A stretch of DNA of 64,000 nt from Squalus acanthias. Its lineage: Eukaryota. Location: assembly GCA_030390025.1 (NCBI GenBank), contig CM059431.1, positions 131,070,001 to 131,134,000 on the forward strand. The letters run 5' to 3'. The notes beneath the pieces were generated by a model. It had not been told where the DNA came from and searched no databases. It saw only the letters and a list, made by a program, of their open reading frames with translations. Position numbers and translations under genes: made by a program. Each line of letters opens with the position of its first letter. Within the stretch, counting starts at the first letter, position 1. Of the stretch, positions 40,600-53,795 are shown piece after piece.

Positions 40600-41278
40600 G
40601 TGGGTTAGCCTTTTGTCTGTGGCATTTCCTTTTCACCATGGATGTCCAATCCCTCTACACCTCCATCTCCCATCTGGATGGACTGCTTCTTACTTGAACT
40701 GAGGTCCAACCAGTCCCCATCCACCACCAATTTCCTGCACCTGGCTGAATTTGTTCTTACAGTACACAACTTATCCTTTGACACCACTCACTTCCTCCAA
40801 ATAAAAGGTGTTGCTATGGGAACCCATATGGGACCTAGCTATGCCTGCATTTTCGTGGGATACATGGAATGTTCTTTGCTTCAGCCCTACACAGGACCCC
40901 TCCCTCACTTATTTTTCCAATACATTGATGACTGTATTGGTGCCTCTTCTTGCTCTCACCCTGAACTGGAAAATTTCATCAACTTTGCTTCCAATTTCCA
41001 GCCCTCCCTCACCTTCACATGGTCCATCTCCAACTCTTCCCTTCCATTCCTCGACTTCACCATCTTCATTTCTGAAGATAGGCTGTCGACCAATATCTAC
41101 TATAAGTCCACTGAGCCTCATAGTTACCTTGACTACACTTCCTTTCAACCTGCTTCCTGTAAGGACTCTATTCCATTCTCCCAGTTTCTCTGTCTCCATT
41201 GCATCTGTCCTGACAATGCCACCTTCCACACCAGTGCTTCCGATAAATCTTCTTTTTCCTGAACGGAGGATTCCCCTC
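40600..41278 (+). mobile_element. Penelope-like element, RT half (interrupted by element 2)
   Basis: QIKGVAMGTHMGPSYA, QYIDD and LPFLD (40642..41262). Confidence 0.88.
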
Positions 41279-42965
41279 TGTAAGGGGTTTTGGCGTGCTT
41301 GTATCACAGACGGTGCTGGTGCGAGGTTAGGCCTTCGTTGCCTAATGCTATTGCTTGCTCTGGTCTCCGGCCAGCCTTGTTGCAATAAGCACCTGTGAGT
41401 GGTTCAACCCACTCGCCCTTACGGTTCTAACACTGGACTTAGGTGCGAGAGCAGTAATGCAGAGAAAAACTCAAATAGACCCGGTTGAATAGTACGAAAT
41501 GGAAATCTTTATTGCATAGCGTCCAAAATCATGAAGTACATGTCATAGGCACAAATTAACGAGAGTACAAGTATACATACATTCATAAAGCTTGGTCTAT
41601 GGTAATGAAGAACGCACGGCACATCGTAAAAAGGGGAACACATTATACTTTATCCTTAATAAAACCACCCTCCCTTATCAATACCTACACTACATCTAGA
41701 TTTGTAGGATCGGGAAACATGCTCACCACTCGTGATACTTCGGAGAATTTTAAAGTGAGGCACTCGGCTCCTTCGCTGCAGCGCCTGACTGTCACGTGTT
41801 TGGAGGGGTCTCTGTACCCCACTTTTTTGTCTTCGCTGCTGCGGCAAGCAGGCCGGGATCCCCGTTGTCATGAAGAACTCGACAGGACTCGGGCCCGGCT
41901 GTAGAACTCAAAGAAAAGTCTTCCTGTACCGACACCAGTTGTCGGTAGAATTCAAAGAAGAGTCTTTGACCGGTTCGTGCAATAACCTGTAGAATTCAAG
42001 AAGTGGGTCCTATATTTTCGGGCGCAGTCGGGGTTTACTGACCGCGGCGGCACGTGGATTCTTCTTCTTTTCTTGTCATTTCGTATTGTCTTGTTGGGCC
42101 TTCGGGTCCAGACACCGTTTACCGACTCTCGGGATGGTGCACCCGGTCACTTGCCTTTGTCGAGGCGGCTCGTTCCGATTGAGCTCCACCCAACATTCGA
42201 ATAACCGTCCAGTGCGGCTAAAAGTCCAGAGTCAACAGAGTCCAGCCCTAGAGAAGAGCTTCGGCAGTCAGCAGCAAGCTAAGAGAATAGGAGACGATTC
42301 AAGCGAATAAGAGCCGAAAATCAAGAGAGCGATGGACATTTGTTCACTATAGTTATAGTGCTGTGTTCCCTTATCTCCCGCCCAAATCTTACTGTTTGTC
42401 CTTTGTGAAATATTGGCGCTCAAAACTCCCAGCATGGGGCGATTCTTTTCTTAACGGGTTTCGGTAGCACCTGAAACTGGCCAACTACCCGTTAATGTTT
42501 TCCCCATTGTTGAACTGGCTAGGAGCCTCCCTGGCTGGGTTTTGGGGGCCCCCGAATGCTCGCTTAATCACCCGTCGATGTCTCTCTCATTGTAGAGCCG
42601 TGGGGGTATTTGTGTATTGATGTGTCTGGATGGGCCTTCGATTGCCCAGTACAATGGTCCTTACTTGTGCATGGAAAACGATTCCAGCACTTATATCTTT
42701 GCTATTGTCACAAATGCAAACAGGTTGCATCCTGTCTTTATCAGTGTTTATCGAGTATGATCGCGCCTTATATTGAAATGTTTATTCGAACGCCATCTTG
42801 TCTGCCCACTGTAATTCTGGAAGCTTCTGCCACGATGCGCGGCGGCCATTTTACAGGCTTCTGTGTCCTTTTTAATCATGACAGCATTTAGTTTTAAATA
42901 AACTGATCAAACGAATCTGCTTCTATCTTGTTATTTTTGAATCGCGATAATTGCGAAACTTTACA
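41279..42965 (-). repeat. 3' LTR of element 2
   Basis: Colinear with 52109-53795 at constant offset 10830; about 22 substitutions by manual count; AATAAA on - at 41508-41513. Confidence 0.96.
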
Positions 42966-42974
42966 GTCCCTCCT
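42966..42974 (-). promoter_or_regulatory. Polypurine tract of element 2
   Basis: AGGAGGGAC directly 5' of the LTR TGTAA on -. Confidence 0.85.
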
Positions 42975-43359
42975 GTTGATGCGAATAACTCCGCTTATCG
43001 TATCAATTAAAAGTGGTGGTGAGCAAAATTATCCCGATTCTCCACATCCAAACACTCCCTTAACTTAAACTATCTATGGCCTCCATGCCGTCCTCATTTC
43101 CCAGGGAAATGATATTGTCTAAACTTGGACAAACCATAGGCAGTATTGCCTTTAAACTTACACTGCGTATACGCCTTCCAGGTGCAACAGGCCGATGCCT
43201 CTCGCACCACCTGTATATGCATTTTATTATACATGGAAAAATAATCAAAACAACTCTTTTAAAAATACAAAAGTTCCAAACTTAGTTACACATACTCATA
43301 ACTAAACAATCAATTACAAAAACACACATGGTAAAATGGAGCGGCGTCATCCTGGCCGT

Positions 43360-45711
43360 TTACACACCACTTTCTTCGTTCACGCGCATGTAGCATTCTC
43401 TCCACTCCCCTGTGTTCTCCTGCTTTGTGAGGCGTTTGCCTCTTTTGCAGTGCACGACCAATAGGTACACTACAATTATAACTTGGCACACTACCAAAAT
43501 GTGGGAGGCTATCCTGATCCATGAAGGAACTTCAATATTCGTGAACAGATCCCACCACAGTGGGATTACTATGTCTAAAATTTCTGTCCCTATCTGTACT
43601 GTTTTCTGTTCCAGGGTGTAAAAGTGGTTTTGTGATACCGCGACGGCTTTCAAAAGCTTGGTGAGGTGTTCAGGGAGAGGGGGAATGATGTATCCGAAAT
43701 GCGCGACGAATCGCTGCAAGTCTGTGAAATTCTCTTTTACTGTGAGGTGAACAGTGGATGGTTCAGGGATCGGGACAATTCGCTGTTGTGCCACTTGAAC
43801 TTCAGCCCTGGGTTTAAAACAGAAACTGCTGTCACTCACCGGACACCGGCTGTGGTTTCCATGCTGGTAGTGTTGCGCTGCAGTGGTAACGCAATATGTT
43901 CCACCCCCTATGTATGCCACCTGCGGAGGCACATGATCTTGTGTCATTGCCTCCATGGTGCAATTCATGGGCTTGGCGCCAGCTGTTCTGAACCCGCATT
44001 GTGGTGTTAAAAAGGCATTCAAGTGCTGGGGACACAGGATTATGTGTGCTCCCCGGCCACGACAACCCGATAGGCCGGTACCTGTCATCGTTTGCTCCCA
44101 GCGGATGACGTAAGGTGGGACCGCTGCGTAGCGAATGTGGGCTCCCCCCTGAATGACACCAATGTTCTCCACCCGATACACCGGGGCGGGCTTTGCTGTG
44201 TCGCCCAAGACCGGCATACGTAGTACTATACCCATGATGGTATGGTTTGACCGTCCGCAGTCCACGGGGACTGGGTATGCCTCTGAGGCTAGCCTGAGCT
44301 GGCACGGGCTTAATGCGTTCTGAAAAGGGTGGAGCGCCTGCAGGTGTTTGTTACTTATCCAGGACAGGACCAAACCTTGTTTTAAATCCTCCAAGTTACT
44401 GCGGCCCTCGCCCAGTAACCACGCCCCGTATAGTACGCACACCTCGTTCTGCGCAGCTTGATCGGATGCATTCCGATCTTCCCTGATCAGGGCATTTACC
44501 GTTCTCGCATGCTTCTCCAGCTCTGCTATAATTTCTTTTAAGTGTAGCGTCATGGCCTGGTCCTCATGTAACTCAGACCCTACTACCTTGTTTTCGCTTG
44601 TGAGGATGCTTTTTAGTTGTGTTTTTAAACCATTGATCTGGGTCTGCAGCTCCACGTTTTCTAGAGCGTTGACCACAGATGTTCCTGTATTAAAGGCGGT
44701 GAACATATTGTTCACAATACCCCTTCTTTGTCTCCCCACCTGACCCAAAACTTTGTGTGGTGTGGTGTACAAGCTTGTTTTGTCAATCTCTGCAAAATCA
44801 AACTCGTAGAATTGTCTGAACATGTTTGTCAACAGGACCTGGTACAATTGTTCTGTCTCTTTGGGGCACCACTCTGGTAAACGCACCTCGGTGAGATTTA
44901 GAATCACCGAAGCCACCGCGTAATGTACCCCCTGAAATAGTATCTGGTCTGTTGGGACCAGTACCAAACCATTCCTTGGCCCCTTAGTGGTTTTAGGGCA
45001 CCCTTCCTTTTGAGCCAAAACCACCGGAATCGTGGGCGGAGACTTGCGTGGGCGCGTGATGAGTTCAGTGGCGTTTACCGGGATCGGGGAGAATGGAGCT
45101 CCGCACCCCTTTGTGCTGACATCCCATCTCATCCCTTTCCCGTTATCCTGCCACTGGTGTACGAAAAATATGGATATACCCTTGGGGCAAACGTATTTCG
45201 ATCCCCACATACAAACATATATTCCCTCATCCGGTTCCCACCATTTGTCCCAACAGACTTTCAATTGTCCGTTAGTCCCTGTAATTGTCCGATGGGTATT
45301 GTTACCCAATCGCTCCCACTCAACCAAGGAATTTCTCATAGTCTTGCTTAACTTCCGTAACCACCACCATCGGCTCAATGGGACCTTCCCATTGCATGTC
45401 AAACAAATCCTTTTGCCGACGGTGACGCTGATTCTGGGTGCAATGATCCTCACTCTGGGGCACAGTAAAGAAGTCTCTTTGTAGGCAAATCCCGATGCAC
45501 TGGAGTATTCCATCGAATTTGTTCCCAGCCATCCCGGCCACCTTCCCTTGTGGAAATAAGTGGCGGTCTCCTCAGCCTTTCGCTCCCCGGTCCCATCCGT
45601 CGCGATGGGGGCCGTGTCCCCGGAGCAACCAAACACAACGACATCCTTGATGAGGCCCTGATAGGCCAATCCATATCCGATCGTTGCGAGCACTATCAGA
45701 ATCCGTTCCAT
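43360..45711 (-). CDS. env: Envelope glycoprotein, 783 aa, open: signal peptide, Ig-like domain, Pro-rich linker, class I F-like fusion module, TM
   Basis: Hydrophobic N-terminus; RQRR|GIVNNMFTAF (aa 327-340); heptad repeat; Cys-rich block; TM aa about 732-753; N-glycosylation sequons; position between pol and PPT. Confidence 0.92.
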   Translation of the reverse strand: MERILIVLATIGYGLAYQGLIKDVVVFGCSGDTAPIATDGTGERKAEETATYFHKGRWPGWLGTNSMEYSSASGFAYKETSLLCPRVRIIAPRISVTVGKRICLTCNGKVPLSRWWWLRKLSKTMRNSLVEWERLGNNTHRTITGTNGQLKVCWDKWWEPDEGIYVCMWGSKYVCPKGISIFFVHQWQDNGKGMRWDVSTKGCGAPFSPIPVNATELITRPRKSPPTIPVVLAQKEGCPKTTKGPRNGLVLVPTDQILFQGVHYAVASVILNLTEVRLPEWCPKETEQLYQVLLTNMFRQFYEFDFAEIDKTSLYTTPHKVLGQVGRQRRGIVNNMFTAFNTGTSVVNALENVELQTQINGLKTQLKSILTSENKVVGSELHEDQAMTLHLKEIIAELEKHARTVNALIREDRNASDQAAQNEVCVLYGAWLLGEGRSNLEDLKQGLVLSWISNKHLQALHPFQNALSPCQLRLASEAYPVPVDCGRSNHTIMGIVLRMPVLGDTAKPAPVYRVENIGVIQGGAHIRYAAVPPYVIRWEQTMTGTGLSGCRGRGAHIILCPQHLNAFLTPQCGFRTAGAKPMNCTMEAMTQDHVPPQVAYIGGGTYCVTTAAQHYQHGNHSRCPVSDSSFCFKPRAEVQVAQQRIVPIPEPSTVHLTVKENFTDLQRFVAHFGYIIPPLPEHLTKLLKAVAVSQNHFYTLEQKTVQIGTEILDIVIPLWWDLFTNIEVPSWIRIASHILVVCQVIIVVYLLVVHCKRGKRLTKQENTGEWRECYMRVNEESGV

Positions 45712-45988
45712 CTTTCCTGGTTCCTGTGATCAGATAAAATGATGTAGCCAGCCTCCCAAGAGTCTCTGGCTTTTGTGAAGGGTGAGCGGGTCCCTTGACC
45801 TCGTCTCACGTAAAAAGACATGTATTCTGGATAGACTTTAACTATTCCTATCTCTAACTCCCATCATTTTACCACTTACTTTTAAAATTAAACTACAAAC
45901 TTACCAAAATTATAAAACTTAAACTTAAACTTATAAACTTATCCTAAACTTAAACTGTACAGCGCTGCCCGTTCCCAGGGCGGCCTAC

Positions 45989-48900
45989 CTAAATTCTGCG
46001 AAGGCTGCCACGAGCTTTTCCCAGTGGTGGGAGGGCACTGACCCCTTCCTTTGATCTGCCGCAGCCTGTCGCCGCTGCGCTAGGATTGGGATCTCCCTGG
46101 GCTGCCTTGACCTTGAACTTACGCCTGGGGGTGCACGGGGGATTTGGCCACGACTTCCTGGGCTGGGGTGTCCGACTTGACCTACGGAGGGCTACTTTGG
46201 GCAAGATTTCCAGGGCCGACAGACCAGGAACCAAGACTTCCACCGTCGCGGCCTGTGGTCCCACCACAGCCGCTGGCTCCGTCTCCCCTGGCTCCGCCCC
46301 CCTGAACTCAGGATTTGCAGTTTCTGGCTCCACCCTACTTGGCCCAGTATGTTGTCCTCCACTCGCAATCCCTACCTCCCCCAAGGGCAAGACTTCCAGG
46401 GCCGACGGACCGGGTACCGAGACTTCCACCGTCACGGCCTGTGGTCCTACCACAGCCGCTGGCTCCGTCTCCCCTAGCTCCGCCCCCCTGGGCTCGGGAT
46501 CTGCAGTTTCCGATTCCACCCTGTGTGGAACTCCACTCGCAGCCCCTATCTCCCCTAAGCTTGAGTCGAGGGTGAAACCTTCGTCCTCCGACCCCAGCAC
46601 CTCTCCGACCGGGTCACTACCTTGATCGAGCTCCCCGAGCTCTTCCTCATCTGAATCCCAACACCAAGAAAAGATCCTACACTTTTCCAGAATGTCCTCT
46701 CCCCTCAAGCAGGCTGCTTTACCGGTCTGTGCGCCCTGCGGTCCTACCCGGGGCTGCGAGTCCCCACTCGCAGTTTTGGCCCCTGTGATTGGCCCCTGTG
46801 CAACCGGCTTATACAACTTGCACTGGTTAATGTGGAACCATTTCGTGCGCCGGGGTACCTTTACGGCGTACACCATGGGACTCGCCTTATCTACAATACT
46901 GTAGGGCCCCATATACAGTGGTTCCAAACTCCCTACTCTGGCATAGTTCCTAACCATGACCTGATCTCCGACTTCCCACTCCTGCTTCTTGCGGGGTTCC
47001 AGCAACAGGCGATTGCCCTGGTGCTGTCTTCCCATGTTCCCAGCCGCCTGCTCGTAAACCTGCTTCAGGCGCTCCAAGAGGGTCTGGACAAACTTGTCCC
47101 TTTTCACCTCTTGGAGCTGGACCTCAGTGAGCACCGGGGCTAGTACATGGGTGGGGGTTCGCATGATCCTCCCAGTCATCACCTCGTACGGGGAGTACCC
47201 TGTACTTTTCGACTGACTGGCCCGGATCCCCATGAGGACTAGAGGCAGAACCTCCGCCCATTTTTGGGGCGAGTTCATAGTCTCTTTCCTCAGCTTCTCC
47301 TTGAGGGTCCGGTTCATGCGTTCAACAATCCCGGATGACTGGGGATTGTGCGCTACGTGCCACTTCCCTTCAATGCCCAAAAGCATGAGGGTGTTCTGCA
47401 TCACCTGGCCGGTGAAATGACTCCCTTGGTCTGACTCCACGAAACGGGGGAGTCCCCACCGCGAGAACACTTCCCGGACCAAGATCTTGGCAGTACCCAG
47501 CGCCGTAGCTGTTCTACAGGGGAAGGCTTCTACCCATTTGGAAAACACATCCACCAAGACGAGGCAGTATTTGTAGCCTCCCTGGGTGGTGGGCAGGGGC
47601 CCTATGTAATCGATCTGTATCGACTGCCATGGTCCCTCCACCCTCCTGATGTGCCCCATGTGCACTTTCCTTTTCTGGAGGTCTGGGTTGTTTGCAGCGC
47701 ACACAAGACAGTTTGCACAGAACTCGCGGACCTGCTCCCTGAGTCCCGGCCACCATCCCGCCTGCTCTACCCGTTGCCAGGTAACCTCCGGCCCGGGGTG
47801 TCCTGCCCCCGGCCCCTCATGAGCCAACTGGAGGAATTCCCTCCTGTGCTGCTGCGGCACAACCCACTGTTCCTCGCGGAACAGCATGCCTTCTTTAACG
47901 GAGAGGGTTGCCGTACTGTACGGGCCCTCTACCTGCTTGCCCTCAGTAATCATTCTGAGAACTGCTTTTAGGGCGGGATCCTGGTTCTGGACGGTCTTAA
48001 GATCTAGGGGCAGTGCTACCCTGGTGTTCCCAGGATTCCCTTCCCTGCCTTGGATCGCTGCCACGGATCCGGGTCCATAGGGGTCCCAGAAAATGCCGTT
48101 ACGGGCACCCTCCCTGGCTAGCGCATCCGCCTGCTGGTTGCCCTCCCCGCGGGGCTCTGTGGAGGAGTGAGCCTTCACCTTATGGATGAAAATCTCCCCT
48201 TCCTCCCCTACTGCTGCTAGGATCTTTTCCAGCAAGGGCTTCATCGTTAAAGGTCGCCCGTCCGCGGAGGTGTATCCACGGCGGGACCAAATGGCCAGGT
48301 ATTCCGTACACGAATTGCACGTAAACATACTGTCCGAACAAATCGTGTATGGGGTTGGGAAAATCTCTAGGTGGGTCACTACGTACGCCACCGCAGACAG
48401 CTCAGCCTGCTGCGCGCTCATGGTGCTGGGGAGTTTAATTGCCAGGGCAAGGTTTGCCGCAGGATCATAAACTCCACACCCTGTGAGTCGTTCGCCAGCG
48501 GACACTGTGCTGGAACCATCAACATAAATCTCGCGACCTGTGGGATGTATCCCGGCCCGCAAACCTATGTTGACCTCCCACACCCCTTCCACCGAACACC
48601 GGTGATCTTTTCACAGCCCAATGCGTGGCTAAAAGATGCCTTTCGCAATTGGAGAAACTCCTCTCCACATCCGTTAACACCCTGGACGAATAGACAACCG
48701 GCCTCAGCTTGCCGTGACGCTCTTGGAGCAGCACGGCGCTCAAGCTGTCTCCGCTGGCAGCTACCTCCAGGAAAAACTCCTTCCCCCCATCTACGGCCCC
48801 CAAAGCTGGCACAGTCTGCAAATCCCTTTTTAACTTCTCGAATGCTGCCTGACAACCCTCGTCCCAAGACCACTCCACTCCCTTCTGGAGGAGTCGGAGC

Positions 48901-50273
48901 AGCGGAGCTGCTGTGGCCGCATAGTCCTCGATGAAGTCTCTACAGTAACCGGTCAGTCCCAGAAAGGCCCTCACACCCGTTATGGTGTTGGGAATCGGTA
49001 ACTCCTGCACCGACTCCCTCCTAGCCTTATCTATGGCTCTTTCCCCAGCGCGAATGGTCAGACCCAGGAATTTTACTTCCTGCTGACCGATACGTGCTTT
49101 CTTAGGGTTCACTTTAAAACCCTTTCTCGCTAGCAGCTCCAATAACTCGGCTAGCAGTGGTCCATGCTCCTCCCTTGAGTCCGTGAACAGGAGCAAATCA
49201 TCCACGTACTGCACTATCTGATTGGGCTGACTAAACTCCTTTAAACTTCCTGCCATACACTGATGGAAAATATTGGGGCTGTTGTGGAAACCCTGTGGCA
49301 AACAGTTCCATGTGTACTGTTGTCCTTTAAAAGTAAAGGCGAACTTGTACTGGTCCTCTCGCCGCAGCGGGATGGACCAAAAACCGTTCGAGATATCCAG
49401 CACCGTGAACGTGGTCGCGGACGCTGGGATACTCCCTATTAGGTCAGCAACTGCTGCTACTGTGGGCGCGCAGGCGGGGATGTTACTGCTAAGGACTCTG
49501 TAGTCCACCGTGGCCCTCCACGAATTATCCGGCTTCCTCACCGGCCATAATGGGGAGTTCACGTGTGTGGCTATCGGCCTCAACACGCCCTGCTGCACCA
49601 AGGAGGACATTGCTGTCTCCATATCAGGTTCTGCTTCTTTGGGGAAGTTATACTGCTTTTGGGGCCGGGTCATGGGGTCCCCGTCTACGCTGACCTCAAA
49701 CCCGGTAACCCTCCCACAATCGTGCTTGTGGGTTGCAAACGTGTGCATATTATCTGACACGTACGCTTGCATGTCCGTTGGGACATCCGCGACCATAAGC
49801 CCGAGGTCGTAACCTCCGGATGGCTTCATGGTACACAGGGCCCCTTTACCTTCCTTCCCCGGGATTACAACTACCTTGCCTTTTCCACCCTTGGCTCCCC
49901 AGAGACAGTGATTCCTAAGGTCCACGAGGATCCCGTGTTCCGATAGGAGATCCGATCCGAGGATACCTCTGCCACCCCCCTCTTGCCATTTCATCAGTAT
50001 GCACTTCCATGTGGTGTGGAGTGCTCCTAAATGAATGGAGAGCGGAATGGAGAACGCGCCAGCCTGCTCTTTTCCCGTGAACCCCGCTAATGTGAATGGG
50101 ACCTTGGTAGACAGTGGTGAGTCAAAGGGGCTATCTGTGTGAATCACGGTGCATGAAGCTCTCGTGTCCAACAAATAACTACCCTTCTGCTTCTCTACCT
50201 CCATCTCCACCAGGGGTCTTTTCCACGCATCATAGCTGAGCGGACACAGGCAAATGGGCTGCGCGGGCTCTAG
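45989..50273 (-). pseudogene. pol: pol of element 2 (PR-RT-tether-RNase H-IN with long C-terminal extension), broken by one deletion frameshift
   Basis: ORFs 48519..50210 and 45989..48592. Protease triad mutated to DTR. YVDD. RNase H DGSS/AEL/SDS/NQQAD. HHCC and DDE integrase. About 200 nt missing at about 48605 relative to element 1. Confidence 0.94.
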
Positions 50274-52032
50274 TCATTGGGTACTGGTGGACGGGGTTGT
50301 GGCATCTGTGAGGCCGGTAGTGACTGCCAGCCTTCCTTGCAAAATCATAAGGGACCGCATAGCTCCCAACATTGATTCTATCGCATCGGGATGGATAGGC
50401 ACACCAGGCCCTCTCTCAGAGACAGGCGCTTGGGTTCGGGCTGCGGGATTTTTATCCCTGGGGTCCTTCCAGGGGTTCCTACAGTTCTTACGCCAGTGAC
50501 CTGTCTTCCCGCACCCGTAACAAGCACCACTGGCTTGTGGGGCGCGGTTTCCCTCCTGATGCCACTCCTTTTGAGCCGGGGCTGCGGGCTGTGCCTCATG
50601 CACCTTTCCCTTAAGGGGATGCGCTCCCGTGCTCCTAATGTTACGATACCCTATGGTGAGTCGATTTAGGACAGACTCCTCTGTTGTGGCGGGGTTAGTG
50701 GGATCAAACCATGCTTTGGCCTGCTCCCTGACGGCTGGCAAACTGTTGGCTACTAAACACCTGAGCAAATGAGTTAAACCAGCACCGTCCAGGTGGTGGC
50801 GCGCGCTGGCGCACCTGGGCAGCTACTCTGGTGTACTGGCCACAGCCTATCGGCGAAAACCTTCGGGGGTTCTCCCTCCATCTGTATGGTTTGACTCAAT
50901 CTGACGAACGGACCTTCGTCATCCGCCCCTAACACTTCTAGGACCTCGTCCCTTAACTCCTCATAGGTTTTATTTCCCCTCTTGCTCTCGTCTGAGAGAC
51001 ACTGGAGGATCGAGCTATCCAACGAGAACAGCAACATTTTGGTCTTTTCCTCATCGTCGCAGCCATTAATTGCTGTGGTCTGTTCTACCTCCCTAAAGTG
51101 TACGGAAGGGTCGTCTGACTCGGACAGCTTCCGTACATGGCTAATCATTGCTCTCAGCTGGTGTGAGCTGTGGGGCAATACAAGCTGGTTCAGGACATCC
51201 CCCTCGGCCCCATTGTCTGTATTCGGGCCTCTCTTGTGACCTCGGAGCGGACACATCGGTCCCGACTTCGACTCTACCTCCGGGGACTGTCCTACCTCGG
51301 GAACCTCCTTTTCTATTTCCACCACTTCCTCCCTTACCCAGGTTGCCGAATAGCTGGGTGGCGCGGAGGGCACAGTGGCAAATACCTCCTCTGCTTTGTC
51401 TGGTAGGGATTTTGGGAATTCCCTACCCACCTGTGGCTGGTGTGCTGACGGGCTGATGAGGCACACCATGCCGTTTGCCTTATTCAGGACCTCTCTTAGG
51501 TTCCCTAACTCCTTCTGGCAAACACTGTGGTCGGCTCCCTCATGCCTATCCTCGAGGGCCATCTTATATGCCGCCCTAACTCCCTTCAAGCCTTCTTCTT
51601 GGGCTTTTATCTGGTTAGCTAGGCGGGCACACCGTTCTCTAATCCTACCCTCGTTTAATTTTGCTTCCGTGACCTGACACTCTAGGTAATCAATTTTAGC
51701 CTCATGGTGGTTGGCTACTATCTGGCGTTCCTGATGTAACGCATTCAAGGATGCAATGAGTTTCTGTCCTCCCGTGATCTTTTCCTCCATCTCAACTTCC
51801 AAATCCCTGATCTGAGCTGCCTGTGCTACAATGACCTGGTCCGAAAGTTGGACTTGCTTCTTTCTTGTAGCACATCAGCCAGACCGCTTTCTCTACCGAC
51901 TTCTTATGCTCTTTACTGCCTGTCCATTTGATGGCGGCGTCCTAGCGGACGCTTATCCATCAGTAGGTCACTTATCCACCTTTTGGTTAAGTTAACCTTC
52001 CCAAACACATAGTCGGCTACCCTCTCATCCAT
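50274..52032 (-). pseudogene. gag: gag of element 2, frameshifted
   Basis: Probable ATG at 52032 (MDERVADYVFGK). N-terminal coiled coil. MHR-like IQMEGEPPKVFADRL. One CCHC knuckle CYGCGKTGHWRKNC (50481-50522). Apparent frameshifts near 51945, 51860 and 50800. Confidence 0.88.
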
Positions 52033-52085
52033 CACATTTCGCCTATTCACACCAGGGTCTAAAACATTACTCTCTCGCTGTCAAT

Positions 52086-52103
52086 GTCCTGCCGCGGTCG
52101 CCA
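52086..52103 (-). promoter_or_regulatory. Primer binding site, tRNA-Arg(UCG) type
   Basis: TGGCGACCGCGGCAGGAC on -, complementary to ...GUCCUGCCGCGGUCGCCA, the 3' end of vertebrate tRNA-Arg(UCG) as recalled. Confidence 0.85.
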
Positions 52104-52108
52104 TTTTC

Positions 52109-53795
52109 TGTGAGGGGTTTTGGTGTGCTTGTATCACAGACGGTGCTGGTGCGAGGTTAGGCCTTCGTTGCCTAATGCTATTGCTTGCTCTGGTCTCCGG
52201 CCAGCCTTGTTGCAATAAGCACCTGTGAGTGGTTCGACCTACTCGCCCTTACGGTTCTAACACTGGACTTAGGTGCGAGAGCAGTAATGCAGAGAAAAAC
52301 TCAAATAGACCCGGTTGAATAGTACGAAATGGAAATCTTTATTGCATAGCGTCCAAAATCATGAAGTACATGTCATAGGCACAAATTAACGAGAGTACAA
52401 GTATACATACATTCATAAAGCTTGGTCTATGGTAATGAAGAACGCACGGCACATCGTAAAAAGGGGAACACATTATACTTTATCCTTAATAAAACCACCC
52501 TCCCTTATCAATACCTACACTACATCTAGATTTGTAGGATCGGGAAACATGCTCACCACTCGTGATACTTCGGAGAATTTTAAAGTGAGGCACTCGGCTC
52601 GTTCGCTGCAGCGCCTGACTGTCACGTGTTTGGAGGGGTCTCTGTACCCCACTTTTTTGTCTTCGCTGCTGCGGCAAGCAGGCCGGGATCCCCGTTGTCA
52701 TGAAGAACTCGACAGGACTTGGGCCCGGCTGTAGAACTCAAAGAAAAGTCTTCCTGTACCGACACCATTTGTCGGTAGAATTCAAAGAAGAGTCTTTGAC
52801 CGGTTCGTGCAATAACCTGTAGAATTCAAGAAGTGGGTCCTATATTTTCAGGCGCGGTCGGGGTTTACTGACCGCGGCGGCACGTGGATTCTTCTTCTTT
52901 TCTTGTCATTTCGTCTTGTCTTGTTGGGCCTTCGGGTCCAGACACCGTTTACCGACTCTCGGGATGGTGCACCCGGTCACTTGCCTTTGTCGAGGCGGCT
53001 CGTTCCGATTGAGCTCCACCCAACATTCGAATAACCGTCCAGTGCGGCTAAAAGTCCAGAGTCAACAGAGTCCAGCCCTAGAGAAGAGCTTCAGCAGTCA
53101 GCAGCAAGCTAAGAGAATAGGAGACGATTCAAGCGAATAAGAGCCGAAAATCAAGAGAGCGATGGACATTTGTTCACTATAGTTATAGTGCTGTGTTCCC
53201 TTATCTCCCGCCCAAATCTTACTGTTTGTCCTTTGTGAAATATTGGCGCTCAAAACTCCCAGCATGGGGTGATTCTTTCCTTAACGGGTTTCGGTAGCAC
53301 CTGAAACTGGCCAACTACCCGTTAATGTTTTCCCCATTGTTGAACCGGCTAGGAGCCTCCCTGGCTGGGTTTTGGGGGCCCCCGAATGCTTGCTTAATCA
53401 TCCGTCGATATCTCTCTCATTGTAGAGCCATGGGGGTATTTGTGTATTGATGTGTCTGGATGGGCCTTCGATTGCCCAGTACAATGGTCCTTACTTGTGC
53501 ATGGAAAATGATTCCAGCACTTATATCTTTGCTATTGTCACAAATGCAAACAGGTTGCATCCTGTCTTTATCAGTGTTTATCGAGTATGATCCCGTCTTA
53601 TATTGAAATGTTTATTCGAACGCCATCTTGTCTGCCCACTGTAATTCTGGAAGCTTCTGCCACGATGCGCGGCGGCCATTTTACAGGCTTCTGTGTCCTT
53701 TTTAATCATGACAGCATTTCGTTTTAAATAAACTGATCAAACGAATCTGCTTCTATCTTGTTATTTTTGAATCGCGATAATTGCGAAACTTTACA
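52109..53795 (-). repeat. 5' LTR of element 2
   Basis: Direct repeat of 41279-42965; followed on - by GAAAA and the PBS. Confidence 0.96.

Follow-up and report, generated by a model that had tools for sequence, protein, structure and literature searches.

How does an endogenous retrovirus make its Pol proteins when gag and pol share one reading frame and a stop codon stands between them? The question arises at a junction on the minus strand of the window (the whole 64,000-nt stretch of shark DNA that was analyzed), which reads ...ACC CAA TGA CTA GAG CCC GCG..., with CAA at 50279-50277, TGA at 50276-50274, and CTAG at 50273-50270. Two stop-to-stop open reading frames abut here in one frame, the first (50822..50274, 182 aa) holding a zf-CCHC domain and the second (50273..48519, 584 aa) holding RVP, RVT_1, and RT_RNaseH domains, and tblastn assigned frame -3 to the final block of Gag and to the opening block of Pol alike. 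An earlier sequence-only reading of this DNA had put gag and pol in frame across a single UGA-CUAG stop, and the sequence, the abutting frames, and the tblastn result all confirm it; the 21 sense codons that it counted after the stop run up to a GTG, and an ATG first occurs in frame at codon 24. CAA-TGA-CTAG is the gag stop, set in a type II readthrough context in the sense of Beier and Grimm and followed by an in-frame downstream open frame. As only 4 of the 2215 TGA triplets on both strands of the window occur as TGACTAG, this context is unlikely to arise by chance at one given stop. The explanation we favor, with a probability of about 80%, is programmed opal readthrough between gag and pro in an endogenous retrovirus like SnRV.

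The junction belongs to an endogenous retrovirus of ~12.5 kb (41277-53795, minus strand) with an LTR-gag-pol-env layout (Table 1). Its 5' and 3' LTRs are 98.7% identical (22 mismatches, no gaps), and a 4-bp target-site duplication, GAGG, can be read off both flanks; the surrounding repeats look to us like shark LINEs. Pfam domains run in the order RT_RNaseH, RNase_H, rve, placing a tether and a second RNase H between reverse transcriptase and integrase, and the element is of retrovirus type (Retroviridae or sister clades). The zinc knuckle falls narrowly inside the Pfam cutoff (zf-CCHC, E 7e-4). The primer-binding site looks complementary to the 3' end of a tRNA-Arg, seemingly tRNA-Arg(UCG), and we take a tRNA-Arg to be the primer of SnRV as well; tRNA-Arg(UCG) is a near-cognate reader of UGA, and no tRNA gene was found in the 64,000-nt window. 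At 52084-52106 on the minus strand the primer site shares letters with an ATG that lines up with the start annotated for a skate Gag, and the start codon of gag in this copy is uncertain.

Table 1. Features of the element on the minus strand, in window coordinates
Feature	Coordinates	Strand	Remarks
5' LTR	52107..53795	-	1689 nt, TG...CA ends
Primer-binding site	52084..52101	-	TGG start, 5 nt past the LTR end
gag	50274..52032	-	Four pieces in this copy; from tblastn with two Gag relatives and open reading frames
Single CCHC zinc knuckle	50478..50525	-	68 codons ahead of the stop
Candidate extended stem-loop	50051..50271	-	From folding energy and pair probabilities
Protease	49932..50273	-	In frame past the stop; Pfam RVP residues 17-114
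Reverse transcriptase (YVDD) and tether (degenerate RNase H)	48519..49931	-	Pfam RVT_1, RT_RNaseH
Second RNase H and integrase	45989..48610	-	Pfam RNase_H, Integrase_H2C2, rve
env	43360..45729	-	789-codon open frame, RQRR cleavage site
3' LTR	41277..42965	-	Matched to the 5' LTR

This copy is dead. Three breaks in its gag frame, near 51942, 51860, and 50805 (tblastn with two Gag relatives), one in its pol frame near 48600, which parts reverse transcriptase from the second RNase H and integrase, and an altered protease active-site motif near 50162 leave it unable to make Gag-Pol. The LTRs are very long and only 1.3% apart, yet many lesions mark the interior, which departs from other copies at numerous positions; the insertion may therefore have been defective already, or the LTRs may have been homogenized afterwards. 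A 138-nt direct repeat (89%) lies at 46199-46522, within a long acidic, proline-rich tail after integrase. A second copy of the family, running from pro to env at window positions 1-~5340 on the plus strand, is ~75% alike and more decayed; it begins ~50 nt downstream of the stop position, its gag and junction falling upstream of the window start.

Over a 134-residue stretch of reverse transcriptase counted by hand, ~68 residues (~51%) were identical in SnRV, ~51 (38%) in feline foamy virus, and ~49 (37%) in Loki-Bsp, and on this hand count over a single stretch the element appears closest to SnRV. In SnRV, too, there is one zinc knuckle, and a single stop divides gag from pro-pol within a common frame; according to PMC1224870 the virus shares the readthrough layout. 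Its gag stop is UAG-GGC rather than UGA-CUAG (PMC13517186), and according to PMC3835772 no pseudoknot was found past it. A foamy-like endogenous retrovirus was ruled out by the CCHC knuckle and by pol lying in the gag frame, foamy Gag having no Cys-His knuckle, and a first identification as a lokiretrovirus was dropped, as the reverse transcriptase motifs differ.

A stop in a dead copy might be a nonsense mutation acquired after insertion, with CpG decay as one route, in a gag-pol frame that began as a fusion. Such a history would fit the further lesions of this copy, no fewer than five, the CpG depletion in gag (observed/expected 0.60), and the labeling of 10 of the 24 lokiretrovirus pol entries in the supplement of PMC7947760 (data set S1) as fused to gag, with 14 separate. 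Proteins from relatives point the other way. The 38 Gag-search proteins examined (P0001, P0003, and 36 representatives) include three full-length close relatives, P0001, P0003 (skate), and P0045, and all three end at this place, 68, 58, and 64 aa past the knuckle (68 in the window), two of them in Gln, as here; these ends show the position of the stop and not which stop codon is used. The distant relatives P0055, P0063, and P0065 end 25-64 residues past a knuckle, most of the other proteins are fragments or unrelated knuckle proteins, and a protease-motif pattern matched none of the 38. The closest named Gag is a skate protein, which together with the LINE-like flanking repeats points to a cartilaginous fish as the probable host. 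A junction search among proteins of 519-2000 aa gave the weak result of two matches, one Gag and one Pol, and no fusion. No relatives were found in the viral_contigs and metagenome_contigs scans.

The codon itself can be seen in elephant shark. CmiERV scaffold 2, an SnRV-like lineage I element of that species (PMC4422223), when read by hand has a knuckle, 69 codons, CAA-TGA-CAT, and a frame open to the protease motif; it shares CAA-TGA with our element at a like distance from the knuckle (69 versus 68 codons) and differs in having UGA-CAU in place of UGA-CUAG. Another CmiERV in the supplement of that paper has CAA-TGA-CTC in frame. A sense codon at this place in other copies, which the sequence-only reading had named as the mark of a post-insertion mutation, was absent from these relatives, the Gag proteins stopping there and CmiERV carrying an in-frame TGA.

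Contigs from sequencing runs add a view of other copies. In the 4 of 22 runs listed (four organism codes, four studies; aligned at 80% likeness), contigs from all four cover the bin that contains the stop. Among the 40 of 149 variable sites listed, seemingly those where differing letters make up ~85% or more in at least one run, none lies in 50256-50286 and no run has another dominant letter at the stop, whereas the gag break near 50800 came up in two runs as an indel. In two contigs, 82% alike (16 differences over 90 nt), the match starts at 50279, and one of the two has a further 103 letters toward gag that do not match. These contigs exclude only a purely private stop: since 40 of 149 sites are listed, and since they do not include this copy's altered protease motif either, a minority of copies could carry a sense codon at the stop. 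Because the Gag relatives end at the same place and CmiERV has an in-frame CAA-TGA, comparison across relatives argues that the stop is inherited and is not a lesion of this copy. A random stop would land in a CTAG context as a 0.2-0.4% event, and we regard the nonsense-mutation explanation as largely refuted and extremely improbable. What is kept among relatives is the position of the stop; the CTAG after it is uncontradicted in the four runs at the 40 of 149 sites listed and is replaced by CAT in elephant shark.

A stop shared by the whole family might instead mean that copies spread as Gag-only, non-autonomous elements, with Pol supplied by a helper and no readthrough at all. Two peptides, P0054 and P0062, join gag-like and env-like sequence, which suggests that internally deleted derivatives of the family exist. 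Pol, in contrast, is long, open, and conserved, at 83-85% identity to P0002, 72-77% in the second copy, and 44-46% to frog relatives, and this conservation argues that elements carrying the junction had their Pol under selection, leaving the Gag-only alternative very unlikely. The proteins annotated as 'NYNRIN-like' in frog and 'Gypsy integrase-like' in coelacanth (P0004-P0006, P0010) are Pol proteins of this clade, with 43-45% identity.

Pol might also be translated independently of the stop, off an RNA that is spliced or has its own start, or through reinitiation once Gag is finished, in a foamy-like manner and with the stop context incidental. Foamy viruses have a separately spliced pro open reading frame (PMC1224870), and the ATG at codon 24 is available in frame. 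In Tca2, the UGA junction between gag and pol gave no readthrough in a reporter and contains a promoter (PMC2194720), so gag-UGA-pol junctions need not read through. The CTAG could even serve as a splice acceptor, and env appears F-like, as in foamy viruses and lokiretroviruses. Against this, protease homology begins at codon 9 (BLASTP versus P0008) or 17 (Pfam), with the catalytic Asp at codon 36, so that reinitiation at codon 24 would truncate the protease and lose its conserved N-terminal strand; conserved protease sequence ahead of the first AUG favors readthrough over reinitiation. No T-rich pyrimidine tract precedes the AG of CTAG in the junction sequence, the elephant-shark relative has no AG directly after its stop, and the element has a CCHC knuckle and an SnRV-like reverse transcriptase, unlike foamy viruses. 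We consider independent expression of Pol unlikely and readthrough the better account.

The resemblance of env to foamy and lokiretroviral envelopes comes from its C-terminal half, which looks F-like (paramyxo/baculo/foamy-type): residues 325-770 scored 0.94 by ESM features to a Fusion_gly F0 cluster, which serves as a lead only. A whole-Env atlas search led to an unnamed cluster at 0.84, Pfam gave no match to env, an AlphaFold2 model from the single sequence was unusable (pLDDT 33.5), and a PDB sequence search returned weak matches to antibody light chains alone (E ~0.2). An immunoglobulin-V-like stretch (Cys...Trp...DEGIYVC) lies in the N-terminal half, at 45100-45450 on the minus strand. 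All 789 codons of env are open while gag and pol carry four frameshifts. The corresponding env passage of the elephant-shark relative differs by eye from the one here, which appears F-like and not gamma-type; env exchange or a retained env is possible.

If readthrough is the mechanism, the context of the stop is well suited to it. In human cells UGA-CUAG supports readthrough, its conservation extends through the vertebrates, and UGA-CUA by itself gives 1.5% readthrough (PMC4132726), and the type II context comprises UGA-CUA or UGA-CGG (PMC13517186, PMC4132726). The identical UGA-CUAG heptamer, with readthrough shown, is found in AQP4, OPRL1, OPRK1, MAPK10, and MDH1 (PMC4132726); these are host genes, with short extensions and no conserved structure. 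That UGA-CUA is used by alphaviruses, as the sequence-only reading stated, agrees with a 2026 review that lists it for alphaviruses and a triatovirus (PMC13517186). The benefit that the sequence-only reading ascribed to the 5' CAA codon lacks an established basis, the same review calling the preference for A at -1 'not absolute'.

The opal mode had also been called unusual, which does not hold for UGA itself and does hold for its type II UGA-CUA(G) context. UGA stands at the gag-pro junctions of SSSV (UGAAGA), ZFERV (UGACGA), and a cane-toad endogenous retrovirus (UGAAGU) (PMC13517186), and XtERV-S also has TGA there. Like our element, all four have an in-frame opal stop with predicted readthrough; they belong to other clades, and the contexts of the first three are other than type II UGA-CUA. 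The accessible text of the review lists no UGA-CUA context in a retrovirus, and literature on UGA-CUA with gag or endogenous retroviruses, outside subscription papers and Repbase, consisted of titles on cellular readthrough or tRNA. The accessible parts of PMC9040795, PMC12440569, PMC8227577, PMC10435555, and bioRxiv 2021.11.23.469661 contained no mention of this junction. According to PMC13517186, the UAG-pseudoknot sites of gammaretroviruses are the sole retroviral sites with proven readthrough, and in epsilonretroviruses it is unverified. MoMLV, a gammaretrovirus with a type III site, serves the common purpose of a fixed Gag to Gag-Pol ratio through stop suppression, but it does so with UAG-G, a purine spacer, and a compact pseudoknot ~8 nt downstream, compared to UGA-C here (PMC13517186). 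A type III site was rejected for our element, whose stop is UGA-C rather than UAG-G and is followed by no stable compact structure; a crude scan for a compact pseudoknot by the stop turned up nothing beyond geometrically weak candidates built on a single 6-bp stem.

Alphaviruses offer a closer parallel. At their nsP3-nsP4 junction the hexanucleotide UGA-CUA is the same, and extended stem-loops stimulate UGA readthrough through a long-range stem similar in design to the candidate in Table 1, in which +6/+16..+44 would pair with +188..+217/+226 and enclose a hairpin at +59..+177 (stop U = +1). Folding the region past the stop, as the sequence-only reading had advised, gave a result that depended on length: windows of 40-120 nt were no better than shuffles (z -1.9 to +1.9), whereas 229 nt folded as one long stem-loop with an MFE of -88.9 kcal/mol (z -4.29, matched by 0 of 200 shuffles), a length picked after seeing folds. 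One of 24 equal tiles folds as well as these 229 nt, and several reach z -2.5 to -3.2. Pair probabilities in three contexts were mostly 0.7-1.0 for +16..+44 and 0.2-0.85 for +6..+14. Among the variable sites listed, 7 of the 10 inside the stem-loop are unpaired, against 28% expected (p ~0.007), and 9 of 10 are structure compatible, against 68% expected per site, figures to be read with the clustering of the sites in mind and with the knowledge that a structure predicted on this copy favors unpaired differences. In the second copy, which has its 5' arm beyond the window, 36 of the inner hairpin's 48 pairs are kept (27 unchanged, 7 with one-sided and 2 with two-sided changes) and 12 are broken, which is at chance level and gives no covariation support. 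The stem-loop is accordingly a candidate only, based on folding energy and without covariation, whereas the alphavirus structure, from an unrelated virus family and with a span of 126-177 nt in VEEV and SINV compared to ~200-220 nt here, is backed by conservation and mutagenesis.

From these features we infer readthrough, how often it took place, and whatever part the stem-loop may have played, and the earlier proposal that Gag-Pol is made by opal readthrough is supported to that extent. In the active virus, most ribosomes would have stopped at UGA and released Gag, and a few percent would have decoded it via a near-cognate tRNA to yield Gag-Pro-Pol. The near-cognate tRNAs for UGA are those for Trp, Cys, or Arg. 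Basal leakiness would come from the UGA-CUAG context, and the long stem-loop, starting 3-13 nt past the stop, would probably raise it.

A similar context may occur well beyond sharks. Lokiretroviruses, described as the sister group of all retroviruses, likewise have an LTR-gag-pol-env layout and dual RNase H, and their Env, like Mononegavirales F and with an RxKR-type site, is of the kind that env here may encode; the accessible part of the same paper includes no report of them from cartilaginous fish and shows their Gag ends without a knuckle (PMC7947760). In its supplement, 8 of the 14 separate entries have visible junctions (Cne, and each of the 7 preceded by an annotated Gag), and hand reading of these consensus sequences of the authors found TGA-CTA ending gag in 7 of the 8. 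Four (Ofa, Cne, Pyo, and Sau) have TGA-CTA-G in frame to the protease motif; Dcl and Lro have TGA-CTA-A in frame to the annotated pol, Bsp has TGA-CTA-A in a consensus whose frame slips later, and Tfu reads TGN-CTA-A. Four junctions were found by motif search and four independently via pol starts, and 13 of the 17 TGACTAG matches in the supplement are not gag-pol junctions. The accessible texts of PMC7947760 and PMC9040795 make no mention of readthrough, stop codons, or frameshifting, and a search of the literature since 2020, outside subscription papers and Repbase, found none tying lokiretroviruses to readthrough. The shark and lokiretroviral TGA-CTA may reflect either shared ancestry or convergence. 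We tentatively raise the idea, which we hold to be possible but doubtful, that UGA-CUA with a long-range stem-loop is a widespread and overlooked gag-pol strategy of basal aquatic retroviruses, including SnRV-like shark elements and lokiretroviruses.

As a class, opal suppression at gag-pro is known; the type II signal is, as far as we searched, new for a retrovirus. The readthrough signal of fish and amphibian retroviruses has not been identified, according to PMC13517186, and a type II site followed by a candidate stem-loop of defined extent makes a cassette that can be tested directly. There is a practical consequence for annotation as well, in that gene calls for Pol in these families begin at downstream starts, leaving out the N terminus of the protease. 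If the readthrough interpretation is true, the UGA-CUA signal known from alphaviruses would extend to a retrovirus, bearing on which strategy of pol expression is ancestral, and if the wider pattern is also true, opal readthrough may be older than the UAG-pseudoknot of gammaretroviruses and than the frameshifts by which other genera make Pol.
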